From: a virus
Lineage: Duplodnaviria; Caudoviricetes
Virus record (IMG/VR): IMGVR_UViG_3300025167_000028
Location: 1-39,924 of that record
Reading direction: 5' to 3' (one strand)
Length of the DNA: 39,924 nt
A program made the position numbers and the translations under genes. Below are positions 1 through 16,166 of this stretch, one piece after another (position 1 is the first letter of the stretch; every line of letters begins with the position of its first letter). The notes beneath the pieces are model-generated. The model saw only the letters and a program-made list of their open reading frames with translations. It did not search any database and was not told where the DNA came from.

Positions 1-2
1 TG

Positions 3-140
3 GGGGTAGGGGCGGGGATGATGTTAAAGGCCACCACGCCCGAACTGGAGGTCTTGGGCTTTGAGCTTGTCGCCATGCCTGTCAGCTTCCTTTTCGGCGA
101 AAGAATGTATCTTGGATTCAAAGGTAACATGGCTAAATGA
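3..140 (+). CDS. C-terminal part of a holin-like membrane protein (truncated by window start)
   Basis: Open frame GVGAGMMLKATTPELEVLGFELVAMPVSFLFGERMYLGFKGNMAK*; hydrophobic segment ending FLFGER resembles 3TM holin C-termini; plausibly continues ORF 39806..end. Confidence 0.55.
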   Translation, partial: GVGAGMMLKATTPELEVLGFELVAMPVSFLFGERMYLGFKGNMAK

Positions 141-160
141 AATCTATCCTGCGATAGGTG

Positions 161-188
161 GAATTCTGTCTAATACACTGTGTTATAC
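161..188 (+). other. attI-like recombination site 1
   Basis: GAATTCTGTCTAATACACTGT then GTTATAC; same 21-mer at 3385 and 8630; heads a cassette array; has 2 extra nt before GTT relative to the other copies. Confidence 0.7.
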
Positions 189-347
189 GGCAATGTTTTT
201 ACGGCACTGGTCCCATGCCAGAGCAGGGGTTTTCCCCCAGGCAAGGAGCGTTGCCGGTCCTTCTTCCCAAATGTGGTAACCACCCCATGTTGCCCGACAA
301 CAAAAGGCTCTCGGTATTATATTCAGTACAAACTGTTTCGCGGTCAT
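183..347 (-). CDS. hypothetical cassette protein (54 aa, MTAKQF...)
   Basis: GAGGA RBS before ATG at 347; stop TAA is the complement of TTA in the GTTATAC core. Confidence 0.55.
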   Translation of the reverse strand: MTAKQFVLNIIPRAFCCRATWGGYHIWEEGPATLLAWGKTPALAWDQCRKNIAV

Positions 348-359
348 GTTGTGGTCCTC

Positions 360-420
360 GTGTAACAAGTCATTCCAGCCGATCCTCGCTACGCTCGGGC
401 GGCTGAATTCCGGCTTATAC
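360..420 (+). other. attC-like site (R' core lacks its G)
   Basis: R'' GTGTAAC, 5 nt, L'' ATTCCAGC ... L' GCTGAAT, 6 nt, TTATAC; extra C in L''. Confidence 0.8.
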
Positions 421-1077
421 GTTGCGCTCGCAATCATCGTTTTTGCGGCAAATTATCCAGAAGCAATGACGCTTCCGGGCGTGGTGCGCGGTTTTCCATT
501 TCGTTGAAACCATCGGCCCTTTCCTGATTTTTACAATCAGATCGCAGACCGTGAAACCCGCTTCCTCGGCCATCCGCATAAAATCAGCGTGCGGCCATTT
601 CGATTTGTGGTTGTTCACCATGTCGGTGATTTTGGCGAGCAGCAAGCCGTTCGGCTTTAATACGCGCATGGCCTGTTTTAAGAACGGCGGATAGAGATAA
701 CTCAGGTTCCAATCCTGGTCGACCCCGCATTCCATTGTCGCGCCGAAGTCCACGTCGAAACGCTTTTTGCTTTTGTCCCGCCCTTGCGGGCCGACATGGG
801 GCGGATCGAATATTACCGCACCATACGTCGCTGCCTTGACGCCATTCATTACTCGATTGTCGCCAACAATCATTGGTTTGTATCGCGGGTCAATGTCCAT
901 CGACACCACTTTTCGCTTTGAGCCTTTCCACATGCGCCCGGCGTTGTAGGTTGAATCAAGAATCGGCTCGGGTGGGATTGTCGGGTAGAACTTGAACATC
1001 GCTTCCAGCAAATCGGAATCGTTTCCTTCCCACACGCTGCTAATCGGAGCGTAAAGGAATGGTGCGAGGTCAGTCAC
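415..1077 (-). CDS. DNA amino-methyltransferase-like protein (N6A/N4C)
   Basis: SAM-binding-like ILDSTYNAG..MDID, catalytic IFDPPH, AMRVLKPNG motif. Confidence 0.8.
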   Translation of the reverse strand: MTDLAPFLYAPISSVWEGNDSDLLEAMFKFYPTIPPEPILDSTYNAGRMWKGSKRKVVSMDIDPRYKPMIVGDNRVMNGVKAATYGAVIFDPPHVGPQGRDKSKKRFDVDFGATMECGVDQDWNLSYLYPPFLKQAMRVLKPNGLLLAKITDMVNNHKSKWPHADFMRMAEEAGFTVCDLIVKIRKGPMVSTKWKTAHHARKRHCFWIICRKNDDCERNV

Positions 1078-1259
1078 GGGCGAATTCCAAATGAGTCACG
1101 AAAAATACCAGTACATGCACAACAAAACCAAGTATGCCCGTTGTCCCGGCTATAGTGCCAAACATCATGCTGGCAAACGCGGCAGTAGGAAGTCCGACTC
1201 ATAACAACTGGCTGGAACCGACGCCGGAGACAGCGCAGCATGTTTCCTGTAGCGTTCAT
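1074..1259 (-). CDS. small protein with two CxxC motifs; N-terminus encoded in attC
   Basis: CRVC...CCAC; ATGA overlap with upstream stop at 1256 and overlap with the MTase start. Confidence 0.55.
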   Translation of the reverse strand: MNATGNMLRCLRRRFQPVVMSRTSYCRVCQHDVWHYSRDNGHTWFCCACTGIFRDSFGIRP

Positions 1260-1289
1260 GGCCGGCGCGGTTCATCCATGGCGTTATGG
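1199..1289 (+). other. attC-like site
   Basis: R'' TCATAAC, L'' GCTGGAAC, inner stem CGACGCCGG/CCGGCGCG, L' GTTCATC, R' GTTATGG. Confidence 0.8.
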
Positions 1290-1528
1290 TGAACAACCGA
1301 TGCCCAATGTACTGTGATGAAATTCTGTAAAAACTCAGAATCATCACCCATCGTCGGCCTTCCCTGTGATTTTGCCACGCTACGCGCAAGGTTCACGCAA
1401 TCATGCACAGTCGCCCGCAGCGTAATATGTGCTGAAATATCGTTCCCCTCTGGGCCAGTAGCGGGCCAAGGCTCTCTCCACTCAAGTTCTGCGGTGTGCC
1501 TATTTTCTAGCAGATCGTCAATGTTCAT
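1256..1528 (-). CDS. hypothetical cassette protein
   Basis: 90 aa, GGAGG RBS, ATGA coupling on both sides; ends NAMDEPRRP inside attC. Confidence 0.7.
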   Translation of the reverse strand: MNIDDLLENRHTAELEWREPWPATGPEGNDISAHITLRATVHDCVNLARSVAKSQGRPTMGDDSEFLQNFITVHWASVVHHNAMDEPRRP

Positions 1529-1713
1529 AGTTCCTCCGTGCGCTCGCCGGTTAAGGGCGCGTTAGGCAACGTATATTGATGATAGTATTTCCTTGTAAGC
1601 CTTTCGTATGTTTCAGCTCGTTCTTTATGAAGCCAAAAAGGATAAAGAAGTTCTGCTTCTTCCAAGGCTTTCTTCCTTGCCAGTTCCATCAACCCTACAT
1701 AATCGAGTTCCAT
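1525..1713 (-). CDS. hypothetical cassette protein
   Basis: 62 aa, AAGGAGGT RBS; ends NAPLTGERTEEL. Confidence 0.65.
   Translation of the reverse strand: MELDYVGLMELARKKALEEAELLYPFWLHKERAETYERLTRKYYHQYTLPNAPLTGERTEEL
1547..1567 (+). other. attC right arm only (left arm degenerate)
   Basis: CCGGTTAAGGGCGC-GTTAGGC; GTTAGGCAA is exactly complementary to TTGCCTAAC at 1724-1732. Confidence 0.6.
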
Positions 1714-1725
1714 TCAACCTCCTTT

Positions 1726-1857
1726 GCCTAACAAGCGGTTCGAGATCGGACGGGCCTCGTCAGTGCCGTGTGCGGTTTCGTCGCCTTCTATTGGTTTCTC
1801 ACCACTCATGGTTTCTCATCTCCGTTATCGGCCCGCCGCTCAACCGCAGCGTTAGAT
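1726..1857 (+). other. attC-like site (long loop)
   Basis: R'' GCCTAAC, L'' GTTCGAG, stem CGGACGGGCC/GGCCCGCCG, L' GCTCAAC, R' GTTAGAT. Confidence 0.85.
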
Positions 1858-2063
1858 GGTGTAAACCCCATCTGTTCCGGCACCCCGACATAAGTCAGAA
1901 GCCGCACAGTTTCCTCACGCCACATAACAAAATAAAAATCATCCTGGCCGTGAAGCAACCCGATAAAAATATATTCGTTGCCTTCTTCGTCGAAATACTT
2001 GTTCCCTATTAAGGGCTCGTATTCTTTAACCAGATTTGTCCAATTATCATCTGCGTATGCCAT
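1806..2063 (-). CDS. hypothetical cassette protein
   Basis: 85 aa; ends NAAVERRADNGDEKP inside attC loop. Confidence 0.65.
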   Translation of the reverse strand: MAYADDNWTNLVKEYEPLIGNKYFDEEGNEYIFIGLLHGQDDFYFVMWREETVRLLTYVGVPEQMGFTPSNAAVERRADNGDEKP

Positions 2064-2148
2064 CTAACCTCGCCTTGAACCGGACGCGGGTTACGCCGCG
2101 CCGTTTCCTGTTGTTGAATCAGCCGCGCCGGTTATGGCGGCGTTATAC
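2062..2148 (+). other. attC-like site
   Basis: R'' ATCTAAC; GCCTTGAACCGGACGCGG pairs with CCGCGCCGGTTATGGC with two extra bases on the left arm; R' GTTATAC. Confidence 0.85.
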
Positions 2149-2454
2149 GGCATCCCCTTTGTAGGTAAGGCTTAAGCCGCTCTGTCCGTCCGTACAGCAC
2201 CATATCTGCGGTAGTTGCGGGTATGGTGTTCCGGTGTTTGGCGCTTCGACCCAACGCGGAACGTGTGATGTTTCAAGCGGCCACGGCGGGGAGCGATCAC
2301 GCTCGATAATAATCGGAACGGAAGGAATGAACTTAGAACCGAAAAGCTCGTGTAGTTGATCGTGCAATTCCTTTGCTTCTTCAATAGAAAGCTCAACCTT
2401 CTTGCCGTCTTTCGTCTCAAGTTCAATCTTCGTTAGTTTCAATTTCTTTGTCAT
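2143..2454 (-). CDS. hypothetical cassette protein
   Basis: 103 aa, GGAG RBS; stop lies in the GTTA core. Confidence 0.7.
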   Translation of the reverse strand: MTKKLKLTKIELETKDGKKVELSIEEAKELHDQLHELFGSKFIPSVPIIIERDRSPPWPLETSHVPRWVEAPNTGTPYPQLPQIWCCTDGQSGLSLTYKGDAV

Positions 2455-2482
2455 GTCAGTCTCCGTTGTAGAAGAAAATGCC

Positions 2483-2539
2483 GTATAACACGGCGCTCAT
2501 GCCGACTCGCTACGCTCGCGGCATAGCTAGGCGTTGGGC
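2483..2539 (+). other. attC site (canonical 57 bp)
   Basis: GTATAAC-ACGGC-GCTCATGC-CGACTCGCTACGCTCGCG-GCATAGC-TAGGC-GTTGGGC. Confidence 0.92.
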
Positions 2540-2706
2540 GTCAAAATTTTTAGTGACAATTCCACTACGCATAAAGCACTTCCGACTTGAGCAAGGCATC
2601 GAAATTTATTGTTTAGTGTTGGTGTTGGCTCACCGATCAAGAAAATTCCTGGCGAAATCTCTTTACCGTCCATTTTAGGCAATTCCAAATTACCAATAAT
2701 CTCCAT
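2527..2706 (-). CDS. hypothetical cassette protein (59 aa, below ORF-track cutoff)
   Basis: MEIIGNLELPKMDGKEISPGIFLIGEPTP...KILTPNA*; fills the cassette. Confidence 0.6.
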   Translation of the reverse strand: MEIIGNLELPKMDGKEISPGIFLIGEPTPTLNNKFRCLAQVGSALCVVELSLKILTPNA

Positions 2707-2725
2707 GTCTATTTTCGTCCTTCAC

Positions 2726-2848
2726 GCCCAACCCGGCGCTCAACGCGGACGCTGCGCCAGCGGGCGTCTCGTCGGCTTGTGGTTTCTGGTCGTTCATCGC
2801 TTCGGCTCCTGTTCGTGGCGCGCAGCGCCGGTTAGCTCTACGTTAGAA
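2726..2848 (+). other. attC-like site
   Basis: R'' GCCCAAC, L'' GCTCAAC, stem CGGACGCTGCGC/GCGCAGCGCCG, L' GGTTAGC, R' GTTAGAA. Confidence 0.88.
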
Positions 2849-3129
2849 CGCACACGCTCGCACATAGCCTCGTGCATGGCCTCGGCTTCTTCCCATGTCG
2901 TGCAACGGTCTTGCTCTTGATCGAGCTTACCGCCGAATATCATCGTTTCAAAAAGAAGCGGGGGGCCGTCACCGTATTGATGGTTGAGGCCAAGAAAAAC
3001 CGTGCTCACTTCAACATCATCAATGGTCGTTTTACGAACTGCCCGGTCTGTTCTTTCAAACCTTCGTGCCCAAGTCATCAAGTCGGTTTTTACGGCCTTG
3101 TGTCCTTCAAGAATGTAGTGATCGCTCAT
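2794..3129 (-). CDS. phage hypothetical protein
   Basis: AAGGAG RBS before MSDHY; VSTVFLGLNH...PLLFETMIFGG motif familiar from phage early genes; ends NVELTGAARHEQEPKR in attC. Confidence 0.75.
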   Translation of the reverse strand: MSDHYILEGHKAVKTDLMTWARRFERTDRAVRKTTIDDVEVSTVFLGLNHQYGDGPPLLFETMIFGGKLDQEQDRCTTWEEAEAMHEAMCERVRSNVELTGAARHEQEPKR

Positions 3130-3142
3130 AAATTCTCCTTTG

Positions 3143-3325
3143 TTAATCCTTGGCCGCATTCCTGACCTGGATGTTAGTACTCAATGCGCGAATATCTTTT
3201 GCAGTGCCTCGCTGCTCTACAATGCACGCAGATGCTTCGACAGCTGTATCGTATGCCTTGCGAGCTAGTACAATATCTGCATCGCAACCGTACTTGACAC
3301 TTGAAATAAACTCTTCAAACTTCAT
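3143..3325 (-). CDS. hypothetical protein
   Basis: 60 aa, GAGG RBS. Confidence 0.55.
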   Translation of the reverse strand: MKFEEFISSVKYGCDADIVLARKAYDTAVEASACIVEQRGTAKDIRALSTNIQVRNAAKD

Positions 3326-3384
3326 CGTTATAACCTCATAAAGCCAGCCGGGATAGTCAGCGCGCCCCTAATCTTTCGTGGGCA

Positions 3385-3410
3385 GAATTCTGTCTAATAC
3401 ACTGTTAGCC
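3385..3410 (+). other. attI-like recombination site 2
   Basis: GAATTCTGTCTAATACACT-GTTAGCC; no hairpin; followed by a cassette with complementary ends. Confidence 0.8.
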
Positions 3411-3551
3411 CTCTCGGGCCTTCGCTACACGCTCCAGGTATCGGCGCACTCGTTCCCAGTCTTTCGGGTGGACCCATACCTGCCGGAGCGTGTAGCCCTT
3501 GGCACGCATCCTTGCGCGCTCGTCCCGCTTCCGTTGGGCGGCATCCTTCAC
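3405..3551 (-). CDS. small DNA-binding/antitoxin-like protein (DUF3018/RHH-like)
   Basis: MKDAAQRKRDERARMRAKGYTLRQVWVHPKDWERVRRYLERVAKAREG*; GTGA coupling; stop lies in the core. Confidence 0.6.
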   Translation of the reverse strand: MKDAAQRKRDERARMRAKGYTLRQVWVHPKDWERVRRYLERVAKAREG

Positions 3552-3724
3552 GGATAAATCCACCTGTACACTTCTTCCCCGCCTTCATCTTGGTCGAAGC
3601 GCACTAACCAATACTCCCCGTCCCCGCACTTCACGTCTTCGGCTTCAAGCAGGGTTGCCGTTCCCTCGTACTTTATTTTCGTAATTGGGTCTTCGTAAAT
3701 TTCTAATCTGTCGTATGGTTTCAT
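3548..3724 (-). CDS. small acidic hypothetical protein (58 aa)
   Basis: MKPYDRLEIYEDPITK...YRWIYP*; AGGAGG RBS; directly behind a consensus promoter. Confidence 0.7.
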   Translation of the reverse strand: MKPYDRLEIYEDPITKIKYEGTATLLEAEDVKCGDGEYWLVRFDQDEGGEEVYRWIYP

Positions 3725-3762
3725 GCTTCCTCCTGTTGTCGTAGCTCGATTGCTACAGACAC

Positions 3763-3791
3763 ATTATAGCACGTGACATGTCACATGTCAA
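3763..3791 (-). promoter_or_regulatory. consensus sigma70 promoter with palindromic operator
   Basis: TTGACA-17 nt-TATAAT; spacer contains the palindrome GTGACATGTCAC. Confidence 0.9.
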
Positions 3792-3794
3792 GAG

Positions 3795-3858
3795 GGCTAA
3801 CACGGCGCTCCACCGGATCGCGCGCTACGGCGCGCTCCCGGTGAGCTTGGCGTTAGAG
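3795..3858 (+). other. attC site (64 bp)
   Basis: GGCTAAC-ACGGC-GCTCCACC...GGTGAGC-TTGGC-GTTAGAG. Confidence 0.92.
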
Positions 3859-4208
3859 CCCATGCGCAGTAGCTCCTTGCCACGCCGCCAAATGTCCATG
3901 CGCAGTGCGCCTCGCGCCTCCATCTTCCGTGCCTGCGTCCAGGTAATCGCCTGCGTTATGCGTCGGCAGTCCATCTCGTGGCACATCTGCGGCTTCGTGC
4001 CGTGGATCGTGCAGCCTTCGTCGCCGAGGTACACGCAGGCGCCGTCCGGTTTGTGCGCCAGCATCCTCGCTTCCGGCATGTACGGATGCGGCTCCGTCTG
4101 GTACTTGCTCAGGTCGTCGCCAGCCAGCAGCCGCACCGCATCGTTGTGGCAGCAGCGCGTGCAGCCGTCGCACGGCACGTCGTACAAGGGCTCTAACATG
4201 GCGCTCAA
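3825..4208 (-). CDS. YkgJ-like cysteine cluster (Zn/Fe-chelating) protein
   Basis: CDGCTRCC...CVYL...GCTIHGTKPQMC pattern; ends NAKLTGSAP in attC; start uncertain. Confidence 0.75.
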   Translation of the reverse strand: MSAMLEPLYDVPCDGCTRCCHNDAVRLLAGDDLSKYQTEPHPYMPEARMLAHKPDGACVYLGDEGCTIHGTKPQMCHEMDCRRITQAITWTQARKMEARGALRMDIWRRGKELLRMGSNAKLTGSAP

Positions 4209-4210
4209 CC
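4191..4210 (+). other. attC left arm only
   Basis: CTCTAAC-ATGGC-GCTCAACC; GGGCTCTAAC complements GTTAGAGCCC at 3852; no right arm seen. Confidence 0.65.
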
Positions 4211-4287
4211 TCTAGCCGCGGTCTTGTGAAATCAATGCGCCGATCTTAATCTTTCCGTACATTCTCGCCTCCGTCTACGCCCAACAA

Positions 4288-4941
4288 TTAAATCCTCGCA
4301 ATCGCCTTGATCCGCATCCGGCGATTGCGAATCTGTTCGGCATATCCCGGCTCACCGCCGCTGTATCTGTGTTGTGCCCGCGCGATGGACTTGAAAGATT
4401 GTAGATGCTGAGCCATATATCGCGCACCTGCATGCAGATTAGCCTCGATACCGAATCGCTGGCTCCAATCCAACCCGAGAGCGCGCGCGGTGGCTGGCAT
4501 GATCTGGGCCAATCCTACCGCACCCGCGCGGCTGACGGCCCGTGAATCGAAATGCGATTCTTGCTCGATCTGCGCCGCCCACCAGGTCACATCCAGCCCA
4601 TGAGTTTCGGCGGAGACCACCAGGGCGCGGGCGATGCGCGACGCCGGGACACGAGGATTTACGCCAGCGACATATCGGGTCAGTCGATCAATTGTCTGCT
4701 CGCGCTTGGCGTCCGTAAGTTCGGCGGCGAGACTGATCGCCAGATCAACCGATTTCTCGGCGGTATCGGCAGCCTGTTTTATCAGACCATGAGCTGCGAA
4801 ATACTCGCCTCGCAGAAAATTGATCTCACGATCGCGCTCCATGACCGTGACGTATACCGCCGCCATCCCAAAAGCAGCGCCTATAACTGCGTGAATCAGC
4901 GCATCGCGCATGCCGTACCTATCATCATGTTGGATTTTCAT
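4288..4941 (-). CDS. lytic transglycosylase (SLT domain) with N-terminal TM segment
   Basis: EQES...AVSRAGAVGLAQIMPATA...NLHAGARY motifs. Confidence 0.88.
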   Translation of the reverse strand: MKIQHDDRYGMRDALIHAVIGAAFGMAAVYVTVMERDREINFLRGEYFAAHGLIKQAADTAEKSVDLAISLAAELTDAKREQTIDRLTRYVAGVNPRVPASRIARALVVSAETHGLDVTWWAAQIEQESHFDSRAVSRAGAVGLAQIMPATARALGLDWSQRFGIEANLHAGARYMAQHLQSFKSIARAQHRYSGGEPGYAEQIRNRRMRIKAIARI

Positions 4942-5467
4942 ATACCAGCGCCCGAAGAGCGAATTGTTGCAGATCAATTTTCAGGCCCGCCGTCTCCGCC
5001 GCCCGCGCCGCCGCCCGCGCCGCCGCCGTCTCCGCCGCCCGCGCCGCCGCCCACGCCGCCTGCGCCCCCCGATCTTTACCGGCAAGCCAGTTCGCCGCCC
5101 ATACGTGAAATTTCGGCTCGTCATAAACAGCGAGCGCGCAGTAGATCGCAAACGCCACTCGTTGCTTGGTCGTGAACACGGGCAGTGGTAATTCCTTAGT
5201 CAGCCGCATCCGCTTGGCCCCGCCCTTAAGACCGTCGTGCGCAACCTGGTCGCACTCGACCGCGAACAGGCGTGGGCTCTGAATATGCGCGTGTGCGGGG
5301 TTCAGAAGAACTGCTAACTCAGGCGAGTCGTAAAAATGGAACACGTCGGCGGAACAGAGCACGTTGCCGGGGGTATCTATCTCATGTATCTCGCCCAAGT
5401 GCCACTGAAAACCGCAGTGGGTGCACATTGTCTGATCGGTCAATTTATATTTTGTGAGGAGCTCCAT
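4925..5467 (-). CDS. phage hypothetical protein with Ala-rich repeats
   Basis: AAWAAARAAETAAARAAARAAETA low-complexity tract; coupled to neighbours. Confidence 0.7.
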   Translation of the reverse strand: MELLTKYKLTDQTMCTHCGFQWHLGEIHEIDTPGNVLCSADVFHFYDSPELAVLLNPAHAHIQSPRLFAVECDQVAHDGLKGGAKRMRLTKELPLPVFTTKQRVAFAIYCALAVYDEPKFHVWAANWLAGKDRGAQAAWAAARAAETAAARAAARAAETAGLKIDLQQFALRALVYENPT

Positions 5468-6147
5468 CAAAATCTCCATCCCAGCACGATCACATTCGTT
5501 TGCCCTACCCCTGCCATAAAGCTATGGTTATTAAAACGACCGCCGACATCGGTAATATATGCGTACCATCCAAGCGAGAAATTCTTTCCGCGCACACCCG
5601 TCCCCGCCATCCACCCAAATCCATGTAATGTTTCATTGAACGTGTTTCCATTGAACGTACTTCCATTATAAAAATACTCATCTTTCCACAGGGAAAAAGA
5701 CTGTCTGAAGCCACCTGCGCCGATCTCCACGAAGGCATGCCGGCCGAATACGCGCGAGACCAGGAAGGCGCGCATGGAGCCAGTGGTATGATAAAAATCA
5801 ACATCGCCCTGGCAGCTTTGCCCACCTCCGGCGAGGATACAATCTTCATTATCCGAAGCGTAGCCAGCGAGCGAGTAAACGCCCAGATCGGCATACGAAA
5901 GCCTCCAACCCCCATGATCCAATCCGATTCTGAACATCGAGGGCTTCATGTTCCAATCCACTCCGTAGCCCGCGCATTCCTGATGCCACAAACCGCATGG
6001 AGGCTTTTCGTATTTCGATTGCCCGATTTCGATGAAAGGTGTGGCGGCGCAGGCGTCCTTGATGTACGAAAATCCCACTAGAAACAATAGCACCGCAATC
6101 CAAAATGCGGTATAGGATTTGATTAACAGCTTTGTGTCTTCGTCCAT
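5467..6147 (-). CDS. putative outer-membrane beta-barrel protein
   Basis: Signal-peptide-like N-terminus, amphipathic Gly/aromatic strands, C-terminal VIVLGWRF. Confidence 0.6.
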   Translation of the reverse strand: MDEDTKLLIKSYTAFWIAVLLFLVGFSYIKDACAATPFIEIGQSKYEKPPCGLWHQECAGYGVDWNMKPSMFRIGLDHGGWRLSYADLGVYSLAGYASDNEDCILAGGGQSCQGDVDFYHTTGSMRAFLVSRVFGRHAFVEIGAGGFRQSFSLWKDEYFYNGSTFNGNTFNETLHGFGWMAGTGVRGKNFSLGWYAYITDVGGRFNNHSFMAGVGQTNVIVLGWRF

Positions 6148-6156
6148 TGAGGTCTC

Positions 6157-6456
6157 CTACGATCGGTTATAAGCGCGCAATACACCTTTTGCTTCATCTC
6201 GTTCGGCGACATATTCCAGCAATAGACCAAGCCAAGCTCTTAGCGGCCAGTCGGGGTTGTATGTGCGAAAATCTTCCAAACTTTTATACCCCGTCGCTTC
6301 CAGATATTGTGTTTCTGTTATCCGGAAACGTCTCAGCCAACGCCTCATATTTTCATTCGTGGGCTCCGTCCTCCAGTTAGGCAATCTGATGTAAAAACGC
6401 CTTGCAAGACCAACCCAGGTCTCGTTGTCAACAAATTGGTTTCGTAGCGTGTTCAT
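6157..6456 (-). CDS. hypothetical protein
   Basis: 99 aa ORF in the leftward operon. Confidence 0.6.
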   Translation of the reverse strand: MNTLRNQFVDNETWVGLARRFYIRLPNWRTEPTNENMRRWLRRFRITETQYLEATGYKSLEDFRTYNPDWPLRAWLGLLLEYVAERDEAKGVLRAYNRS

Positions 6457-6650
6457 GGCTCAAGTAGGGGTGCTGAATGCTGTAACTATGGCACTTAGGC
6501 CTAGTCGAGTCAAGTTTTAGGCTAACCTGATCTTGCCCGATGCTAGTTGCCCCAAGCGCAGGCGCTTATACCGCGCGAGTCTTAGCCACATGATGCGCGC
6601 GCATAGTTTGTGCCCGCGCGCGCGGACCACGATTTTGACGGCATTGGGGC

Positions 6651-7415
6651 TCATATTTTCTCCAGATATTTTTTATCCAGTTGCCAGTAAGCAAGTAGTA
6701 ATCGGAACTTTTCAAATCCAGTGTCGAGATGTGATTGATCCCATTCATGAACACGGGTCAAGCCGGGATTATTGACTGAAATAAATATATTTATTCCCCT
6801 GGAGCTTGGCATTCCAAGCCCCGCACGATAAGCGGCCAATTGCATGCATTGTTCCGGCCACGTTAAGTTATCGCTGGTTTCGGAAAATTCCTTGGTTTTG
6901 AAGTCAATCACCATCGAGTCATTGTGCAAATCCACCTTCCCCCCGTAACCCAAGGGCGAGGCGAACGATCTTTCGCTATGCCACCTATCGCCTAATTTGT
7001 TCAGTTCTTCCAATACGGCGGTAACAAATTTTTCATGGGCAGGGTTAAAATTCTTGTGTTGCAAAGCGCGATCTATCGAGCCATGAATTGCAGACCCTTC
7101 CTCGGCTCTTTTCCTCGACTGTTCTTTGGCGTCCCGCGTAACTCGAACCGCGAAATCATCCAATGTTTCGTCCGGATCCATAGGAAGCGTCAAGGCCGCC
7201 AAAATCGCCTGCCGCAGTTTCCATTTTTCTAAGCCCGGCTTGGAAACGATGGACGTAATCATCGTCACGCTGGGGAACAACCCCAAACGGCGGGCATCGC
7301 GTAGCGTAGTCGGGCGCTCCGGCTTATCCCCAACACGGATTGTGTACACCGGAGAGCCGTCTCGGGCATACCAATGCCCCGACTCAAAAGCTATTTTCTT
7401 TTCCATCTTTAACAT
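6651..7415 (-). CDS. PD-(D/E)XK exonuclease (recombination)
   Basis: PSVT, GSAIH, E...GKVD...IDFKT, QLAAY motifs. Confidence 0.85.
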   Translation of the reverse strand: MLKMEKKIAFESGHWYARDGSPVYTIRVGDKPERPTTLRDARRLGLFPSVTMITSIVSKPGLEKWKLRQAILAALTLPMDPDETLDDFAVRVTRDAKEQSRKRAEEGSAIHGSIDRALQHKNFNPAHEKFVTAVLEELNKLGDRWHSERSFASPLGYGGKVDLHNDSMVIDFKTKEFSETSDNLTWPEQCMQLAAYRAGLGMPSSRGINIFISVNNPGLTRVHEWDQSHLDTGFEKFRLLLAYWQLDKKYLEKI

Positions 7416-7987
7416 CAGAATCCAATGTCATCGTCAAAATCAGGAAAATCAGGAGAAGACTCTTGCTTGTTTGTTGATCGGTTGATTTTCTTGGATAGCC
7501 ACTCCGGCAGTTTGCTGAATTGATCCTCATCCGGCGCGTCGAGAGAGAAAGAAATAAGATCGTTCACGGGTTCCGGTTTCACAGTCCCTTTAGGAAGGGA
7601 GGCGACGGTTTTGACGTTTGCATATTGTTTGCCGGTTTTTGAAATTGTGTGAATCACCGTCAACATGCAGGGCGCGCCAAGAATTTTAAAAATATCGAAA
7701 CCCCCCAGTTCCTCCTCGGTAAAAGCCCGCCCCCGCCAGGACACCAAGTCCTGAGCCAAGTTCGAGTCTGGATGCAGCGAGGCGGTATATTCCTTTGCGA
7801 TCATGAAGGGACGACCATCTTCCATAAGCTCATTGGGAAATTCCCACCCCACGCGAATTTTGTGCTTCGCCCCAAACGGGGTATTTTGAGACCCCAGATC
7901 TACCACCATGTAACACCGGGCTATATGCGTTCCCTGCGGAGCAAGTTGAAATTCCCCTTCCGGTGGCTTGCGAATAATCAGCGTCAT
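7415..7987 (-). CDS. ssDNA-binding/recombination-associated protein
   Basis: GTHIARCYMVVDLG N-terminus, acidic tail DFDDDIGF, adjacent to the exonuclease. Confidence 0.7.
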   Translation of the reverse strand: MTLIIRKPPEGEFQLAPQGTHIARCYMVVDLGSQNTPFGAKHKIRVGWEFPNELMEDGRPFMIAKEYTASLHPDSNLAQDLVSWRGRAFTEEELGGFDIFKILGAPCMLTVIHTISKTGKQYANVKTVASLPKGTVKPEPVNDLISFSLDAPDEDQFSKLPEWLSKKINRSTNKQESSPDFPDFDDDIGF

Positions 7988-8169
7988 TTCACGATCTCCT
8001 CGTAATTGATCCCGCACTCAAAACATAAATGTTTAAATTCCTCAGTCACCCCGGAGTGCTTGATCGCTGCATAGACTTTACGCAAACACTCAAATGTATA
8101 ATATTCCCGTTCTTCAAGGTCGCGCCGCTGTTCTTCATTCCAATCCGTTTCACCCATCATTTCTTTCAT
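7984..8169 (-). CDS. hypothetical protein
   Basis: GGAGG RBS; coupled to the next gene. Confidence 0.6.
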   Translation of the reverse strand: MKEMMGETDWNEEQRRDLEEREYYTFECLRKVYAAIKHSGVTEEFKHLCFECGINYEEIVK

Positions 8170-8458
8170 CGGCAACCTCCTTCTCAGCTTGTTGAAAGGC
8201 GCTATCCGCCAAGTAGTCTTTGACGAGCCCAGCTAATAGTTGGCCGACATAAGGCACGCCGATATAAGCATTATCTGTTTTGAGGCAGTCGGCGATTTCA
8301 GACATCTCTTTTCTGTCGCGGTTATAAGCCCAGGTAACCGCCTGAGAGACGATGTAAGCATCAATGTGTCGAAGATTCAGCGCATAGATTTCGTCTGCGC
8401 GACCGGATATATCCTGTCTGTTTTCAGATTCAACGTCATAGATCGGATGTACCTCCAT
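8150..8458 (-). CDS. hypothetical protein
   Basis: AAGGAG RBS before MEVHPIY. Confidence 0.65.
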   Translation of the reverse strand: MEVHPIYDVESENRQDISGRADEIYALNLRHIDAYIVSQAVTWAYNRDRKEMSEIADCLKTDNAYIGVPYVGQLLAGLVKDYLADSAFQQAEKEVADERNDG

Positions 8459-8586
8459 AAGATTCTCCTTTTTAAAGATTCCCGCCACCCTCCGACGGGA
8501 CGCCCAATAAGGGCGGAGCTTCGGGAAGACCCCAGGAACGCTGCTCATCACGTCAGACTTTAGTCGTCTCCGAGGCAATTCATAGT

Positions 8587-8617
8587 ACCGTTCGTCGGCT
8601 GATTATTGCCGTTCATC
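8587..8617 (+). promoter_or_regulatory. tandem AlgR/LytTR-like boxes
   Basis: ACCGTTCGTC at 8587 and GCCGTTCATC at 8608 (21-bp period). Confidence 0.5.
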
Positions 8618-8629
8618 GTTTGATAGGCG

Positions 8630-8655
8630 GAATTCTGTCTAATACACTGTTAGGC
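8630..8655 (+). other. attI-like recombination site 3
   Basis: GAATTCTGTCTAATACACT-GTTAGGC; preceded by GATAGG as in copy 1. Confidence 0.8.
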
Positions 8656-8916
8656 ATCATTCAGCCATACCTTCACTAATATAAAGTCATGCTTCTTTGC
8701 TACATTAATAGATGGTTGCCATTTCTTGTAAAATGGTTTCATCCATTCCTTTTCGTAGTACAGGAAATCAAACGCCTTCCCCCAAGCTTCGTCTTTATGA
8801 ACAGAAAATGTTTGCTTTACCAGAGTTCCACTAGGCGTTTGCAAACACCAGCCATCATGCCTAACAAGGCCAATCGAGCCGACGCCTTTGCCAGCGTTCC
8901 GTTTCCTGTTAATCAT
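8650..8916 (-). CDS. hypothetical cassette protein
   Basis: Starts in the attC loop (MINRKRNAGKGVGSIGLVR); stop lies in the core. Confidence 0.65.
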   Translation of the reverse strand: MINRKRNAGKGVGSIGLVRHDGWCLQTPSGTLVKQTFSVHKDEAWGKAFDFLYYEKEWMKPFYKKWQPSINVAKKHDFILVKVWLNDA

Positions 8917-8945
8917 TTCGGCTCGGCTCATTGGCATCGTTGGGC
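8859..8945 (+). other. attC-like site
   Basis: R'' GCCTAAC; GCCAATCGAGCCGACGCC pairs with GGCTCGGCTCATTGGC with two extra bases on the left; R' GTTGGGC. Confidence 0.85.
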
Positions 8946-9163
8946 GACAAGTATGTCCTATCTGTTGGTATTACCTTCTCTGCACCGCACTTTGAACATC
9001 GGATAATCAGTAGTGATACATCTCCTTTTTTAGAGCCATCATCTATGCTTATAACGTCGTATCGGTCGTGAGAGACACCAAGGAAAGCGTGTACGCAGAA
9101 TATTTTTTGAATCCAGCCGCCCAACAATTCTTTCAAGCGGACGCTCGGCAACAGCGCAGTCAT
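8909..9163 (-). CDS. hypothetical cassette protein (CxH...CxxC)
   Basis: FCVH...RCSKCG; starts and stops inside attC loops. Confidence 0.7.
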   Translation of the reverse strand: MTALLPSVRLKELLGGWIQKIFCVHAFLGVSHDRYDVISIDDGSKKGDVSLLIIRCSKCGAEKVIPTDRTYLSPNDANEPSRND

Positions 9164-9206
9164 GGTTTATCCTTTGCGGCTCGCGCCGCTTAAAGAAGCG
9201 TTAGGA
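9119..9206 (+). other. attC-like site
   Basis: GCCCAAC-AATTC-TTTCAAGC...GCTTAAA-GAAGC-GTTAGGA. Confidence 0.9.
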
Positions 9207-9318
9207 AATTTTGTTGCGACTTTTGTGAATCTAAAACCCAACGGTCGTTACCAGCGTGCCTCCAGCCGGAACTTATCAAAAGAATTACCTCTGGCTCGTT
9301 AGCATCTATATCGCGCAT
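9190..9318 (-). CDS. short cassette ORF (42 aa), possibly a remnant
   Basis: GGAGG RBS, MRDIDANEPEV...NFLTLL*. Confidence 0.4.
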   Translation of the reverse strand: MRDIDANEPEVILLISSGWRHAGNDRWVLDSQKSQQNFLTLL

Positions 9319-9333
9319 ATTTCCTCCGTTTAC

Positions 9334-9355
9334 GCCTAACAATTCGCTCGTGCGG
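9334..9355 (+). other. attC left arm only
   Basis: GCCTAAC-AATTC-GCTCGTGC-GG, then breaks off. Confidence 0.6.
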
Positions 9356-9360
9356 ATTAG

Positions 9361-9531
9361 CTACGCAGCTTCTTTGATAATCTCACCCGCATATTCCTGC
9401 TCACTCTCATCAAATATGTAGATTTTATGAAAGTCGTCCTCGCAGCAGCTATAAACCAGCAAAATGCGACAAATCGGGCTGATCTCAGCCTGAGGTAGAT
9501 CGCGCTCGTCGTATTGGTGAAGATGTAACAT
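9361..9531 (-). CDS. hypothetical protein
   Basis: AGGA RBS before MLHLHQY; overlaps the end of the Cro-like gene. Confidence 0.5.
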   Translation of the reverse strand: MLHLHQYDERDLPQAEISPICRILLVYSCCEDDFHKIYIFDESEQEYAGEIIKEAA

Positions 9532-9694
9532 CGTTTTTCCTGATTCCGAGTCTTTGTCTAGCGCCCATAATCCGATCGGTCTGAGATTGCGGGAGTATGT
9601 TGGGCCACATATAAACAGCATGCCGTCCTACCCCGAGTGCGGCGGCTAGGGCTTTTACCGAGCCAAACAGGACTATTGCTTGTTGTTTTGTCAT
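9485..9694 (-). CDS. Cro-like HTH transcriptional regulator
   Basis: AIVLFGSVKALAAALGVGRHAVYMW HTH signature, 69 aa. Confidence 0.85.
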   Translation of the reverse strand: MTKQQAIVLFGSVKALAAALGVGRHAVYMWPNILPQSQTDRIMGARQRLGIRKNDVTSSPIRRARSTSG

Positions 9695-9700
9695 AAGTCG

Positions 9701-9729
9701 AAGATAAGCGCAATTACATCTATTGTCAA
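9701..9729 (-). promoter_or_regulatory. sigma70 promoter for the Cro-like gene (probably leaderless)
   Basis: TTGACA-17 nt-TATCTT; ATG begins 7 nt after the -10 element. Confidence 0.7.
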
Positions 9730-9802
9730 ATGTTTTACTTATTCTCGGATCTCGGACGAACGGTAATATTTTGGGCTTGTTATTATTAGTAAACCAGTTT
9801 AC

Positions 9803-9860
9803 ATTTAACGCCGGAAATCACGGGCCGGCGTAGCCGGTCCCGTGGATTGATTTGTTAGGG
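9803..9860 (-). other. attC site on minus strand
   Basis: Minus strand: CCCTAAC-AAATC-AATCCACG...CGTGATT-TCCGGC-GTTAAAT. Confidence 0.9.
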
Positions 9861-9906
9861 CGCATTTGGGAAAGAGCATGAGAACAGAACAGACAGAGGA
9901 TGAATT

Positions 9907-10098
9907 ATGAATAAATCCATGATGCAAAAATCCCTAGACAAACAAATTGAATACATGAAGGAGGAGGTTGCTTGGTATGAAAATAAAGTGATAAGTGGTA
10001 AAGATTGGCTTGATGAATTAAATAATTGTCGGGCAATTCTTAAAACACTTGAAAGTCTCCGAGACGAGCCAACCAAACTGGTAGCAACGGAGAAATAA
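9907..10098 (+). CDS. hypothetical cassette protein
   Basis: 63 aa, GAGGA RBS. Confidence 0.65.
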   Translation: MNKSMMQKSLDKQIEYMKEEVAWYENKVISGKDWLDELNNCRAILKTLESLRDEPTKLVATEK

Positions 10099-10112
10099 AA
10101 TATGGTTAAAAA

Positions 10113-10176
10113 GGTAACAGGCGCATGACGGCAGCTTCATCGCCGGAAGGCGTCCTTGTTGACCGCCTTGTTAGCC
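10113..10176 (-). other. partly degenerate attC (minus strand)
   Basis: Minus strand R'' GGCTAAC-AAGGC-GGTCAACAAGGACGC; partner GGTAACAGGCGC on plus; R' not recognisable. Confidence 0.55.
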
Positions 10177-10754
10177 GGCAATTGCTCGGCTATGACAGGG
10201 CGGCAGCAGCGGACACCATACGGCGCAACCACTACACCCGGAGCGTGCCCAGCGGGAAGAGTCACTACGTCCAGTTTGGCGACGCGATAGTGGTGTGGTC
10301 AATCCCCGCGAACAAGAACATTGCGCGGTTTGTTCTCGGCTGGGCCGGCAACGTGTGGGAGTTGTCGAGGCTGTGGGCACCGGACGGGCACGAGCCGAAC
10401 TTGCTCACGCAAGCCATAAGCGCAGCCGTCAAGGTGATTGTGCGGCTTGAGCGGCCCGACGCGCTGGTGAGCTACGCCGACCCGAACGCGGGGCACAAGG
10501 GCGGGGTTTACAGGGCCGCGTCTTGGCTCTACCACGGCAAGAGCGAAGAAGTGAGGACGTACCGGGCACCAGACGGAACGACCGTAGCGCGCAGGGCTTT
10601 CCATTCCGGGCGGAAGGGGCTGCGAAAGGCTGAGATTGAAGCACTCGGCTACAAGGAAGAAAAGTTGCCCGGCAAAGAACGGTTTGTGCGGCCCATATCA
10701 AAGCGGGCAGCGCGGACTTTGACGGCTAACGCCGGAAATCACGGGCCGGCGTAG
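10125..10754 (+). CDS. Mom-like (GNAT-fold) DNA modification protein
   Basis: RNHY, WELSRLW, LVSYADP..GHKGGVYRAASWLYHG motifs; starts and ends in attC sites. Confidence 0.7.
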   Translation: MTAASSPEGVLVDRLVSRQLLGYDRAAAADTIRRNHYTRSVPSGKSHYVQFGDAIVVWSIPANKNIARFVLGWAGNVWELSRLWAPDGHEPNLLTQAISAAVKVIVRLERPDALVSYADPNAGHKGGVYRAASWLYHGKSEEVRTYRAPDGTTVARRAFHSGRKGLRKAEIEALGYKEEKLPGKERFVRPISKRAARTLTANAGNHGPA

Positions 10755-10781
10755 CCGGTCCCGTGGATTGACTGGTTAGCG
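10724..10781 (-). other. attC site on minus strand (45 bp identical to 9806-9850)
   Basis: Minus strand: CGCTAAC-CAGTC-AATCCACG...CGTGATT-TCCGGC-GTTAGCC. Confidence 0.9.
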
Positions 10782-10802
10782 GTAATTGACAGGAGATAAA
10801 CC

Positions 10803-11090
10803 ATGAAACAACGTAAACCAAAATTGGATTCTAACCGCATTCCTTACGCTGTAGTTTCCATAGATAAATTGATTGAAATAGCAGAAAGGATAGTGAAACT
10901 TGAAAGTGAAGTTGAGCACCTGAAACAAACGGCAGGGAATACAGAGAGCCAGATGATAGAGCTTCTTGTTCCGCATATCTCTGATTTCCGGGACGGAAAA
11001 GTTTTTATCCGCGCCCAGGGCGAAGATGGGGCGATCTATCGTGCCGAGGTTCAAATCGTCGGGGCGGTGGGCGTAGACCCAGAGTATTAA
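10803..11090 (+). CDS. hypothetical cassette protein
   Basis: 95 aa, AGGAG RBS. Confidence 0.7.
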   Translation: MKQRKPKLDSNRIPYAVVSIDKLIEIAERIVKLESEVEHLKQTAGNTESQMIELLVPHISDFRDGKVFIRAQGEDGAIYRAEVQIVGAVGVDPEY

Positions 11091-11093
11091 ATG

Positions 11094-11122
11094 ACCGCTA
11101 ACGCAGAATTGAGGCGCTCGCC
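11094..11122 (-). other. attC half-site (R' arm, minus strand)
   Basis: ACCGCTAAC complements GTTAGCGGT at 10775; encodes MTANAELRRSP*. Confidence 0.55.
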
Positions 11123-14717: not shown

Positions 14718-14852
14718 TTATATAGATGACTCCCTCTGAGCTTTCTTCTTCCGGCGTGCGCGCTTCTTGGCCGGTTTGCTCTTGGGCTTCGGCCGATAGG
14801 ACAGAACCTTGTCCACGATTCGGTCAAGTACGGCGGGCGGCTTCTTGCTCAT
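14718..14852 (-). CDS. small basic ORF of the IS (44 aa)
   Basis: MSKKPPAVLDRIVDKVLSYRPKPK...; ATGA-coupled to the transposase; stop inside the TIR. Confidence 0.55.
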   Translation of the reverse strand: MSKKPPAVLDRIVDKVLSYRPKPKSKPAKKRARRKKKAQRESSI

Positions 14853-15769
14853 TGCGTCAGCGCCTTGTAGGTGATGCGCTTGCCAACGGTCGCACACACG
14901 AAACTATCGAGGCGTTCCAGCGTGTGCCGCTTCACGTTGCCGTCATTCAGCCGGAACGCAAACTCGTTGACGTATCGGCCCAAGTGCTTGCGGCTGGTGT
15001 GGTGGTAAACGCCGAGTACCCCGCGCTTCATGACCGCGAACACGCTCTCGATGCTGTTGGTCGTGACGTTGCCGCGCACGTATTCCCCACCGCTGTGGTT
15101 GATCGCTTCGTGGCGGAAGAACAGGCCATCAAGCCCACTGTAAGCCGTCGCCTCGTCGGTGTGCAGCGTCGAGCCAACCGCAACACGCGCATGAATTGCA
15201 CGGTGTACGGTGTCCAGGTTCACGTCGGCAATCGGCGTGGCAATCGTCTTGCCACCGCGCTCACGCATGCCGAGCACCGCAGCCTTACCGACTGCGCCGC
15301 GCCCGGCATTGAGTTTTTTTACGGTGTGCTTGTTCGCCTCCTTGCCGCCAAAATAGGTTTCGTCAATTTCAATGATGCCTTGCAGCTTGGCCAGATCATC
15401 GCCGCACGCCTCACGCAGGCGATGCAGGACGAACCACGCGGATTTTTGGGTGATGCCGATCTCCTTGGACAGTTGCAGCGAGGAAATGCCCTTACGGCTC
15501 GTTACAAGCAGGTACATGGCATAAACCCACTTTTGCAGCGGAACATGCGACCGCTCGAAAATAGTGCCGGTGCGAACGGTGAAATCCTCGCGGCAGGCAT
15601 TGCAACGGTAATAGCCATCCTTGCGATTCGTCACACGTTCGCCACTGGCGCAGATTGGGCATTTCACGCCGTTCGGCCAAAGGCGCGACTCCAAATAGAG
15701 CCGCGCCGATTCTTGGTCGGGGAACAGCTTGAAAAGCTGAAATGTGCTGATAGTCAGGCTGTCGTTCAT
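14849..15769 (-). CDS. IS1595-family transposase
   Basis: Zn ribbon CPIC/CNAC, HTH, EIDETYFGG, LHTDE, NSIESVF. Confidence 0.95.
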   Translation of the reverse strand: MNDSLTISTFQLFKLFPDQESARLYLESRLWPNGVKCPICASGERVTNRKDGYYRCNACREDFTVRTGTIFERSHVPLQKWVYAMYLLVTSRKGISSLQLSKEIGITQKSAWFVLHRLREACGDDLAKLQGIIEIDETYFGGKEANKHTVKKLNAGRGAVGKAAVLGMRERGGKTIATPIADVNLDTVHRAIHARVAVGSTLHTDEATAYSGLDGLFFRHEAINHSGGEYVRGNVTTNSIESVFAVMKRGVLGVYHHTSRKHLGRYVNEFAFRLNDGNVKRHTLERLDSFVCATVGKRITYKALTQ

Positions 15770-15772
15770 AAA

Positions 15773-16039
15773 TCAGTCCTGCGACACGAGGTCTTGCAAA
15801 TCGCAGAATCGTTGCGCCGCTGCGTCATCCTCAACAGACTCAGCGTGCCAGTAATTGCCGGGATTGCGCAGCGGTTGCTTAACTGCCGCGTCAAACAATT
15901 CTTCGGGCGAGAAATCACGCAGGTCATACCCGCTGTTCGCATCTTGGCCAAAGCCTTGTTCTTGCAGATAAATACCGGCATCGGCTTTAAACTCGAACAT
16001 TTCGCATTCGCCTTTCTTGCCTGTGATGATGAATTTCAT
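15773..16039 (-). CDS. IS passenger hypothetical protein
   Basis: 88 aa, AAGGAG RBS, inside the TIRs; upstream TTGACT-16 nt-TACAAT. Confidence 0.7.
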   Translation of the reverse strand: MKFIITGKKGECEMFEFKADAGIYLQEQGFGQDANSGYDLRDFSPEELFDAAVKQPLRNPGNYWHAESVEDDAAAQRFCDLQDLVSQD

Positions 16040-16166
16040 GATCTGAACTCCTTGGTTGATTTACCTAACCTACAATCAACATTGTACATAACTCCCTTGG
16101 GGAGTCAAGTACCTAACCAGACCAGCCGACGAACGGTAGGGAGTCATGTATATAAGTCCCATTTGA

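Follow-up and report, generated by a model that had tools for sequence, protein, structure and literature searches.

Three copies of a bacterial attI core head arrays of mostly reversed gene cassettes in a phage without an integrase gene

Integrons are regarded as bacterial tools, and their insertion site, attI, is normally single and tied to the integrase gene intI. Here we describe the viral record IMGVR_UViG_3300025167_000028 (39,924 nucleotides (nt), the whole of which is hereafter called the window), in which a 21-nt sequence with the layout of attI occurs three times, each time at the head of an array of gene cassettes bounded by attC sites. The phage arrangement is integron-like, yet it is not a complete integron: there is no intI, and the cassette genes are reversed. 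The three repeats are truncated attI sites in an integrase-less phage and probably serve as docks at which the integron integrase (IntI) of the host would insert attC cassettes, with mostly backward genes that would be read by phage early transcription.

Chromosomal integrons of the Acidiferrobacterales / L024 type (locus L024 is described below) share with the window the attI core, the geometry of the site (L box, 5-bp spacer, R box), the architecture and sequence family of attC, complementary cassette ends and a crossover between G and TT. The phage differs from them in having no intI, three attI cores instead of one, no host-type upstream repeat, and antisense genes set in early operons. 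In phages, attC clusters that have no integron integrase (CALINs) have been described, as has the cryptic Shewanella prophage M16-3, with two attI sites, one of them heading a CALIN, and its own intI; phage attC sites recombined with attI1 (Qi et al. 2023, PMC9892861, accessible part). The window resembles phage CALINs in its integrase-less attC arrays, which in that source often come with DNA methyltransferases, and differs from M16-3 in that the latter, a cryptic prophage, encodes an intI itself. The accessible part of PMC9892861 gives no account of systematic antisense cassettes, of a triple attI without integrase, or of cassette exchange between relatives at the crossover.

For IntI1, genomic hotspots (attG) are GWT sites with CRGM at +6 to +9, and off-site excision can take neighbouring DNA (bioRxiv 10.1101/2022.09.11.507474, accessible part). 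This motif, from work on attG sites and on single attC sites lacking integrases (SALINs), fits box1 of the third phage copy and of loci L008 and L010. In the accessible part of that source, however, attC cassettes enter chromosomes, and neither movement of an attI core nor use by a phage is described. An attI1 disrupted by IS1999 and shortened to three binding sites still recombines at a lower rate, full length being needed for the optimum (PMC3518468, accessible part). The phage copies are likewise shortened to three boxes and may share the lowered frequency; the difference is that this attI1 belongs to a clinical class 1 integron, where intI1 is still its neighbour, with another integrase family and another sequence. 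The literature searched, mostly outside subscription journals, yielded no account of phage cassettes in antisense, of an attI core that moves or of the layout of the window, and the accessible parts of PMC13323075, PMC13676570, bioRxiv 2022.02.06.479319 and 2024.02.09.579496 hold nothing on this layout.

The 39.9-kb record is 96% complete and its source habitats are groundwater and soil. The phage combines P22-like structural genes with a lambdoid early region, and contigs spanning the window ends close it into a circle from which only a 119-bp gap is missing. Profile searches of the record with PF00589, TIGR02249 and PF00239 gave zero matches, no integrase was found among the 64 open reading frames (ORFs) compared with PHROGs, and PF00589 had no match in five related, incomplete viral records. 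The recombination genes of the phage encode an exonuclease, NinB and NinG. Blastn of window positions 1-8000 against 50,697 GenBank phages returned no match, and an Rfam scan gave two matches, both at chance level.

The 21-mer lies on the + strand at 161, 3385 and 8630, as the earlier note on this DNA had stated, with no fourth match at up to 3 mismatches and a mean of 0.00 matches in 100 shuffles. All three copies recur in IMG/VR and metagenome contigs, and 19 of the 20 listed runs contain at least half of the words sampled from window 1-10000; the repeats are therefore not an assembly artefact. Among the listed runs holding this region there was no RNA dataset. Copies 1 and 3 do share an upstream GATAGG, and each copy does head an array, with an attC-bounded unit behind it. 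Similarity had been said to end at the GTT core, which is correct for copies 2 and 3, whereas in copy 1 identity ends at GT and GTT comes 2 nt further on. Copies 2 and 3 have the simple site, in which an L box and an R box starting with GTT are set 5 bp apart; it is not present in copy 1, whose junction reads GT followed by GTTATAC (180-188), breaking the L-5bp-R spacing. These bases are confirmed in other assemblies (L002, L004, L025, L029), and copy 1 is probably impaired by the 2-bp insertion. The description of the sites as non-hairpin applies fully to copy 1 (fold z 0.15 and -0.71); copy 2 has small flanking hairpins and nothing more (z -1.73 and -1.94), and copy 3 with its first cassette forms a weak + strand fold (z -2.85, -7.8 kcal/mol) without attC-like shape. 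The phage copies retain the part from box1 to the R box alone: the host-type upstream palindrome is absent from the window and, of the upstream accessory binding sites of attI, only box1 is kept. The copies are located at gene ends, with stop codons inside their boxes and several ORFs stopping in the R box; copy 1 comes directly past the point where the last gene of the lysis region stops.

An exact scan of metagenome contigs with the 21-mer gave 23 loci, made up of phage-type sites and 8 distinct bacterial-type sites (labels in L denote loci or contigs from the scans, those in G genomes or the phage G001). Four bacterial types have more than 1 kb of upstream sequence. In two of these (L023; L024/L027/L031) the exact 21-mer lies upstream of a divergent tyrosine recombinase, adjoining the 5' end of intI and heading an attC array; the L023 and L024 proteins score 454.8 and 441.7 bits against TIGR02249 (cut-off 265). 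The same is seen at L125 with 1 mismatch. The attI identity proposed in the earlier note, which pointed to a neighbouring intI as the check, is borne out by these loci. Other bacterial sites (L020/L040, L021/L028, L038) have no adjacent intI, and at L020 and L021/L028 the 21-mer heads forward arrays. Upstream sequence is too short to judge the neighbour at L015, L022, L033 and L035, and the neighbour gene of L039 scores below the IntI cut-off. A search of viral contigs returned no relative of the L024 integrase.

The exact scan of genomes gave three matches: an Acidiferrobacterales metagenome-assembled genome (MAG), an uncultured gammaproteobacterium and a Planctomycetaceae MAG. In the Acidiferrobacterales MAG G002, a 1-mismatch site stands beside an IntI match (in two pieces, each below the cut-off), and copy 2 is 100% identical to the Acidiferrobacterales site G002:C49 over 27 nt (3381-3407). 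Sites with up to 2 mismatches occur in 10 of 103 Acidiferrobacterales genomes, with 0 for a reversed-pattern control. When aligned, the bacterial sites consist of an upstream palindrome and, further on, box1, an 8-bp linker, the L box, a 5-bp spacer and the R box. The attC sites of the window are also similar in DNA sequence to those of Acidiferrobacterales. On sequence grounds, the 21-mer is a real attI core; its identity to bacterial attI and the exact breakpoints described next confirm the attI reading. The host likely lies in or near Acidiferrobacterales, given the resemblance of the attI core and of the attC sequences. As a separate observation, genomes of this candidate host order can hold 2-3 copies of attI (G047, G002, G104; L020, L021, L038), some heading arrays without nearby intI.

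Variation among relatives starts between G and TT, directly at the crossover, and is seen at all three copies; the earlier note had named such variation as a check. At copy 2, the window and G001 are identical for 67 bases to the right, counted from the G at 3404, and for 0 to the left, where an attC stands in G001. In G001 the cassette directly in front of the copy-2 cassette is cassette M of the window's right arm (397 bp, 99%), so that M sits in different arrays in the two phages. At copy 3, L017 has an orthologous attI with 22 identical bases on the left and 6 on the right; the cassettes behind it differ and include a homolog of the window cassette at 1806-2063. In L019 (99% over window 1-138) an attI core sits close to where copy 1 is, and the first cassette is another one. 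Overall, the core heads different cassettes in three phage lineages. Eighteen distant exonuclease relatives (L044-L061) had no attC match, and the arrays are thus not general to the exonuclease family. Contigs L006/L007, which beyond 11117 switch to G001 sequence at the common 397-bp cassette, are probable chimeras or real recombinants and were excluded as evidence. In contigs of 3 of 4 runs, an opposite-strand joint links 8653 to 9744 (32 bases on the short side), which suggests another phage with attI inverted relative to the cro region.

For attC sites we used a covariance model (CM) trained on 8 bacterial attC sites and no phage sites. At E<=5e-5 it gave 11 window attC, every one in the early region (360-10781), with 9 on the + strand between 360 and 9206 and 2 on the - strand (9803-9860, 10724-10781); the remaining 3 of the 14 matches had E>=0.04. 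Heuristic attC scanners, with 7 window matches against 0-4 in shuffles, were dropped as too noisy. The attC hairpin R''-L''...L'-R' has a conserved extrahelical G (PMC2727003, accessible part). Read at a fixed position (16, bottom strand), this G is present in 8 of the 11 sites, which fixes the strand assignment. With 11 attC by our own model and zero integrase, the window corresponds to the definition of a CALIN, which asks for at least two attC and no integrase; the intI in cis of a complete integron is missing.

A cassette that went through a circle should have a start complementary to its own R''. Of the 23 phage units, 16 agree fully at positions 4-7 (9 of the window's 14), as do 24 of the 29 host units, and 0 of 10,000 permutations reached the end-agreement score, the units being hand-picked from related phages and not independent, so that p values here and below are optimistic. 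Two mis-registered rows (the window O site and the last unit of L017) were counted as misses. End complementarity of the docked units is 11/12 at copies 2 and 3 and 8/12 at copy 1. The arrays are real cassettes. The DNA methyltransferase gene, on the other hand, is an ordinary phage gene between cassettes, because its ends do not match and no attC lies close to 4 relatives of it from other phages. Two attC sites on different cassettes (9806-9858 and 10727-10779) are 96% identical, and their type recurs in L019 and G001. Sites 1199-1289, 2062-2148 and 8859-8945 have a loop motif in common with those of host loci L020 and L022, purine-rich on the bottom strand and ribosome-binding-like, which in the phage can stand ahead of a reversed ORF's start.

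Judged by the longest ATG ORF, 19 of 23 phage units (10 of the window's 14) and 4 of 29 host units run antisense to the attC top strand (Fisher p 7e-7). Of the same units, 21 of 23 in phages (14 of the window's 14) and 7 of 29 in hosts have a purine-poor top strand. The annotated cassette genes, CxxCxxCC and Mom, are antisense to the att sites in both arms, and cassette genes are mostly aligned with the phage early operons. In a complete integron, sense genes are read from a promoter, Pc, upstream of attI; here the strongest promoter, inside the copy-2 cassette (Table 1), points the opposite way. Promoter-like matches overall number 13 where 11.1 are expected, which is chance level. G001 has the same part of the copy-2 cassette that carries this promoter.

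Reversed cassettes also occur elsewhere. L150, an unrelated phage record, combines one attI of the same family with 11 attC; among its 11 ORFs, 10 are reversed and 1 is a tie. L159 (G083:C72), a region in an Acidiferrobacterales MAG that appears Mu-like by its gene identities, has three antisense attC, and a homolog of ORF 2794-3159 lies between antisense attC. A degenerate viral scan with free spacer gave 52 loci, just known phage sites and apparent chance matches; a second one gave 17 loci, among them as new finds L150 and also L142, where the site stands at the end of the contig and no array is visible, and 5 others looked like chance. In L150 (5016-9640), three cassette ORFs have a common N-terminus, apparently encoded in or beside attC.

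Table 1 Features of the window
Feature	Position	Strand	Remarks
attI copy 1	153..188	+	box1 153-159, 8-bp linker 160-167, L box 168-174, spacer 175-179, GT insertion 180-181, GTT from 182
attC, first of array 1	360..420	+	CM 33.5 bits; R' without its G
DNA methyltransferase gene	415..1077	-	between two attC
attC	1199..1289	+	CM; its small unit 1091-1274 recurs in phage G001
attC	1726..1857	+	CM
attC	2062..2148	+	CM; closes cassette of ORF 1806-2063, homologs elsewhere in L017 and G001
attC	2483..2539	+	CM
attC	2726..2848	+	CM; next ORF 2794-3159 (-)
attI copy 2	3377..3410	+	degenerate box1 3377-3383, L box 3392-3398, spacer 3399-3403, R box 3404-3410
Copy-2 cassette	3404..3858	+	two antisense ORFs, closing attC 3795-3858
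Sigma70-type promoter, perfect 12/12, extended TG	3763..3791	-	inside copy-2 cassette, leftward, antisense to att sites
CxxCxxCC (PF03692) cassette gene	3825..4208	-	its attC at 4191 is a left half alone
attI copy 3	8622..8655	+	box1 8622-8628, L box 8637-8643, spacer 8644-8648, R box 8649-8655
Copy-3 cassette	8649..8945	+	attC 8859-8945; antisense ORF 8650-8937 stops in R box
attC	9119..9206	+	CM; further left-half attC at 9334
Cro-like gene (PF14549)	9485..9729	-	heads left early operon, points into recombination operon
Leftward promoter-like site, 10/12	9729-9701	-	before leftward Cro-like gene
attC, right-arm array	9803..9860	-	CM; array without attI copy
Mom-family DNA-modification gene	10125..10754	+	antisense cassette
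Cassette M	10724..11102	-	ORF 10803-11090, attC 10781-10724
IS1595-family element	14726-16140		transposase 14849-15769 (-); between Q-like gene and terminase region

In the reading that we favour, an Acidiferrobacterales-type host would supply IntI in trans during infection. Recombination of the attC bottom strand with attI would then put each new cassette at the promoter-distal end of the block, the reverse of bacterial integron logic, with copies 2 and 3 usable at a reduced rate and copy 1 impaired by its insertion. Several points weigh against this. Optimal recombination of attI1 requires the full-length site (PMC3518468, accessible part), copy 1 has no proper R box, and box1 of copies 1 and 2 falls outside the attG motif. 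The host assignment draws on att-site similarity alone. Five of the 14 window units miss the 4/4 end match (one of them via a coordinate error), and 4 of 14 are 'forward' under the crude longest-ORF rule. In contigs of 4 runs, which drop rare variants, no joint deletes a cassette or fuses two attI copies. The precise breakpoints themselves show past IntI-type events, neither present activity nor direction, and attI may have entered in front of a resident cassette.

Part of this would be expected if the attI cores were relic passengers that came once with captured cassettes and are now unused, variation arising by recombination between attC sites or by phage homologous recombination. The damage to copy 1, the many att sites reduced to eroded halves (about 1545-1566, 4191, 9334 and 11102) and the missing excision joints agree with such a state, the exonuclease, NinB and NinG genes offer an alternative means of exchange, and the right-arm array varies although it has no attI. 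We nevertheless consider it improbable, because L017 retains the attI position while its first cassette differs, and the same core heads different cassettes in the three lineages; the core is also identical over 22 nt in an alignment that is otherwise 87% identical, a weak argument (about 0.05 by chance). The earlier note had further suggested that the whole phage might recombine with a host integron, the repeats acting like attP sites (attI x attI or attC x attI) and the phage persisting as a giant cassette. The lack of an own integrase, the IS1595 element, which hints at time inside cells, and a Vibrio prophage flanked by attC sites (PMC9892861, accessible part) speak for this. The data do not support it: none of the 23 metagenome and 3 genome matches joins phage DNA to intI or to a host array, end-spanning contigs are circular, the record has no match to a PF00717 (cI-type) repressor, and among the 103 candidate-host-order genomes, which are incomplete MAGs, no close prophage was seen, with distant capsid matches only, in two. 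Delivered attI1 did not enter genome sites above background (bioRxiv 2022.09.11.507474, accessible part), and three copies would be left unexplained. We give this idea still less credence than that of relics. Least probable of all, and by a wide distance from the docking of host-inserted cassettes, is a phage operator or promoter that merely resembles attI. Box1, linker and L box do form an imperfect palindrome, and a 9/12 promoter-like match overlaps copy 3. Yet the repeat is identical to bacterial attI beside intI, promoter-like matches are at chance, the copies stand where genes end, their boxes containing stop codons, and the downstream genes, whose conservation in relatives the earlier note had named as the sign of an operator, vary.

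As to the origin of the core, copies 1 and 3 and the G001 site start with a GAT box, which precedes the crossover by 27 bp. Box1 is the R' of a complete attC in L008/L019 and follows a right-half attC in G001. The attG motif, which occurs 60 times in the window, is also fitted by box1 of the bacterial site L035. By excision between attC and box1, the attI core and its first cassette would be taken out together and placed behind another attC, as in the observed junction. The odds that the core arrived and multiplied through this step, as a 27-bp unit (box1, linker, L box, spacer) together with the first cassette, appear to us about even, because cassette insertion at box1 of a resident site gives the same junction. 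A broader proposal is more speculative and, in our view, rather doubtful: the attI core would be a mobile 27-bp unit, lifted by host IntI at an attG-like box and sown into phage genomes, where it would build 'reverse integrons' with several docks and no integrase. By way of these, phages that are unrelated (P22-like, Mu-like) but belong to one host group would trade a common pool of phage-born early-gene cassettes, ordinary phage genes thereby becoming cassettes. An origin of the aadA10 type, in which the attC of a cassette has collapsed onto the attI spacer, was ruled out, as identity extends past the L box by 8-15 bp on its upstream side. By eye, the segment ahead of copy 2 (3326-3383) resembles a decayed attC; the CM gave no match there and local alignment no convincing relative.

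The cro-like gene of G001 heads the nin/replication side, and that of L017 is followed by an HNH nuclease and a methyltransferase (by eye). A GC-rich 12-bp tandem repeat at 4975-5067 encodes the Ala-rich tract of ORF 4925-5479. A tRNA-like sequence, also recognised by eye, lies at L006 12220-12290 (-) and is the same in G001, amid its eroded cassettes.

The phage appears to borrow a host enzyme to shuffle accessory genes, Mom-type DNA modification included, with several docks and an inverted expression logic. Its co-occurring relatives are natural before-and-after pairs at the crossover. This opens to testing how attI spreads away from intI, whether phages use host IntI and how new cassettes are born; orphan attI arrays occur in the candidate host order too, which bears on the spread of attI from intI. 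If the mobile-core proposal is true, phages would be a workshop of cassette formation.

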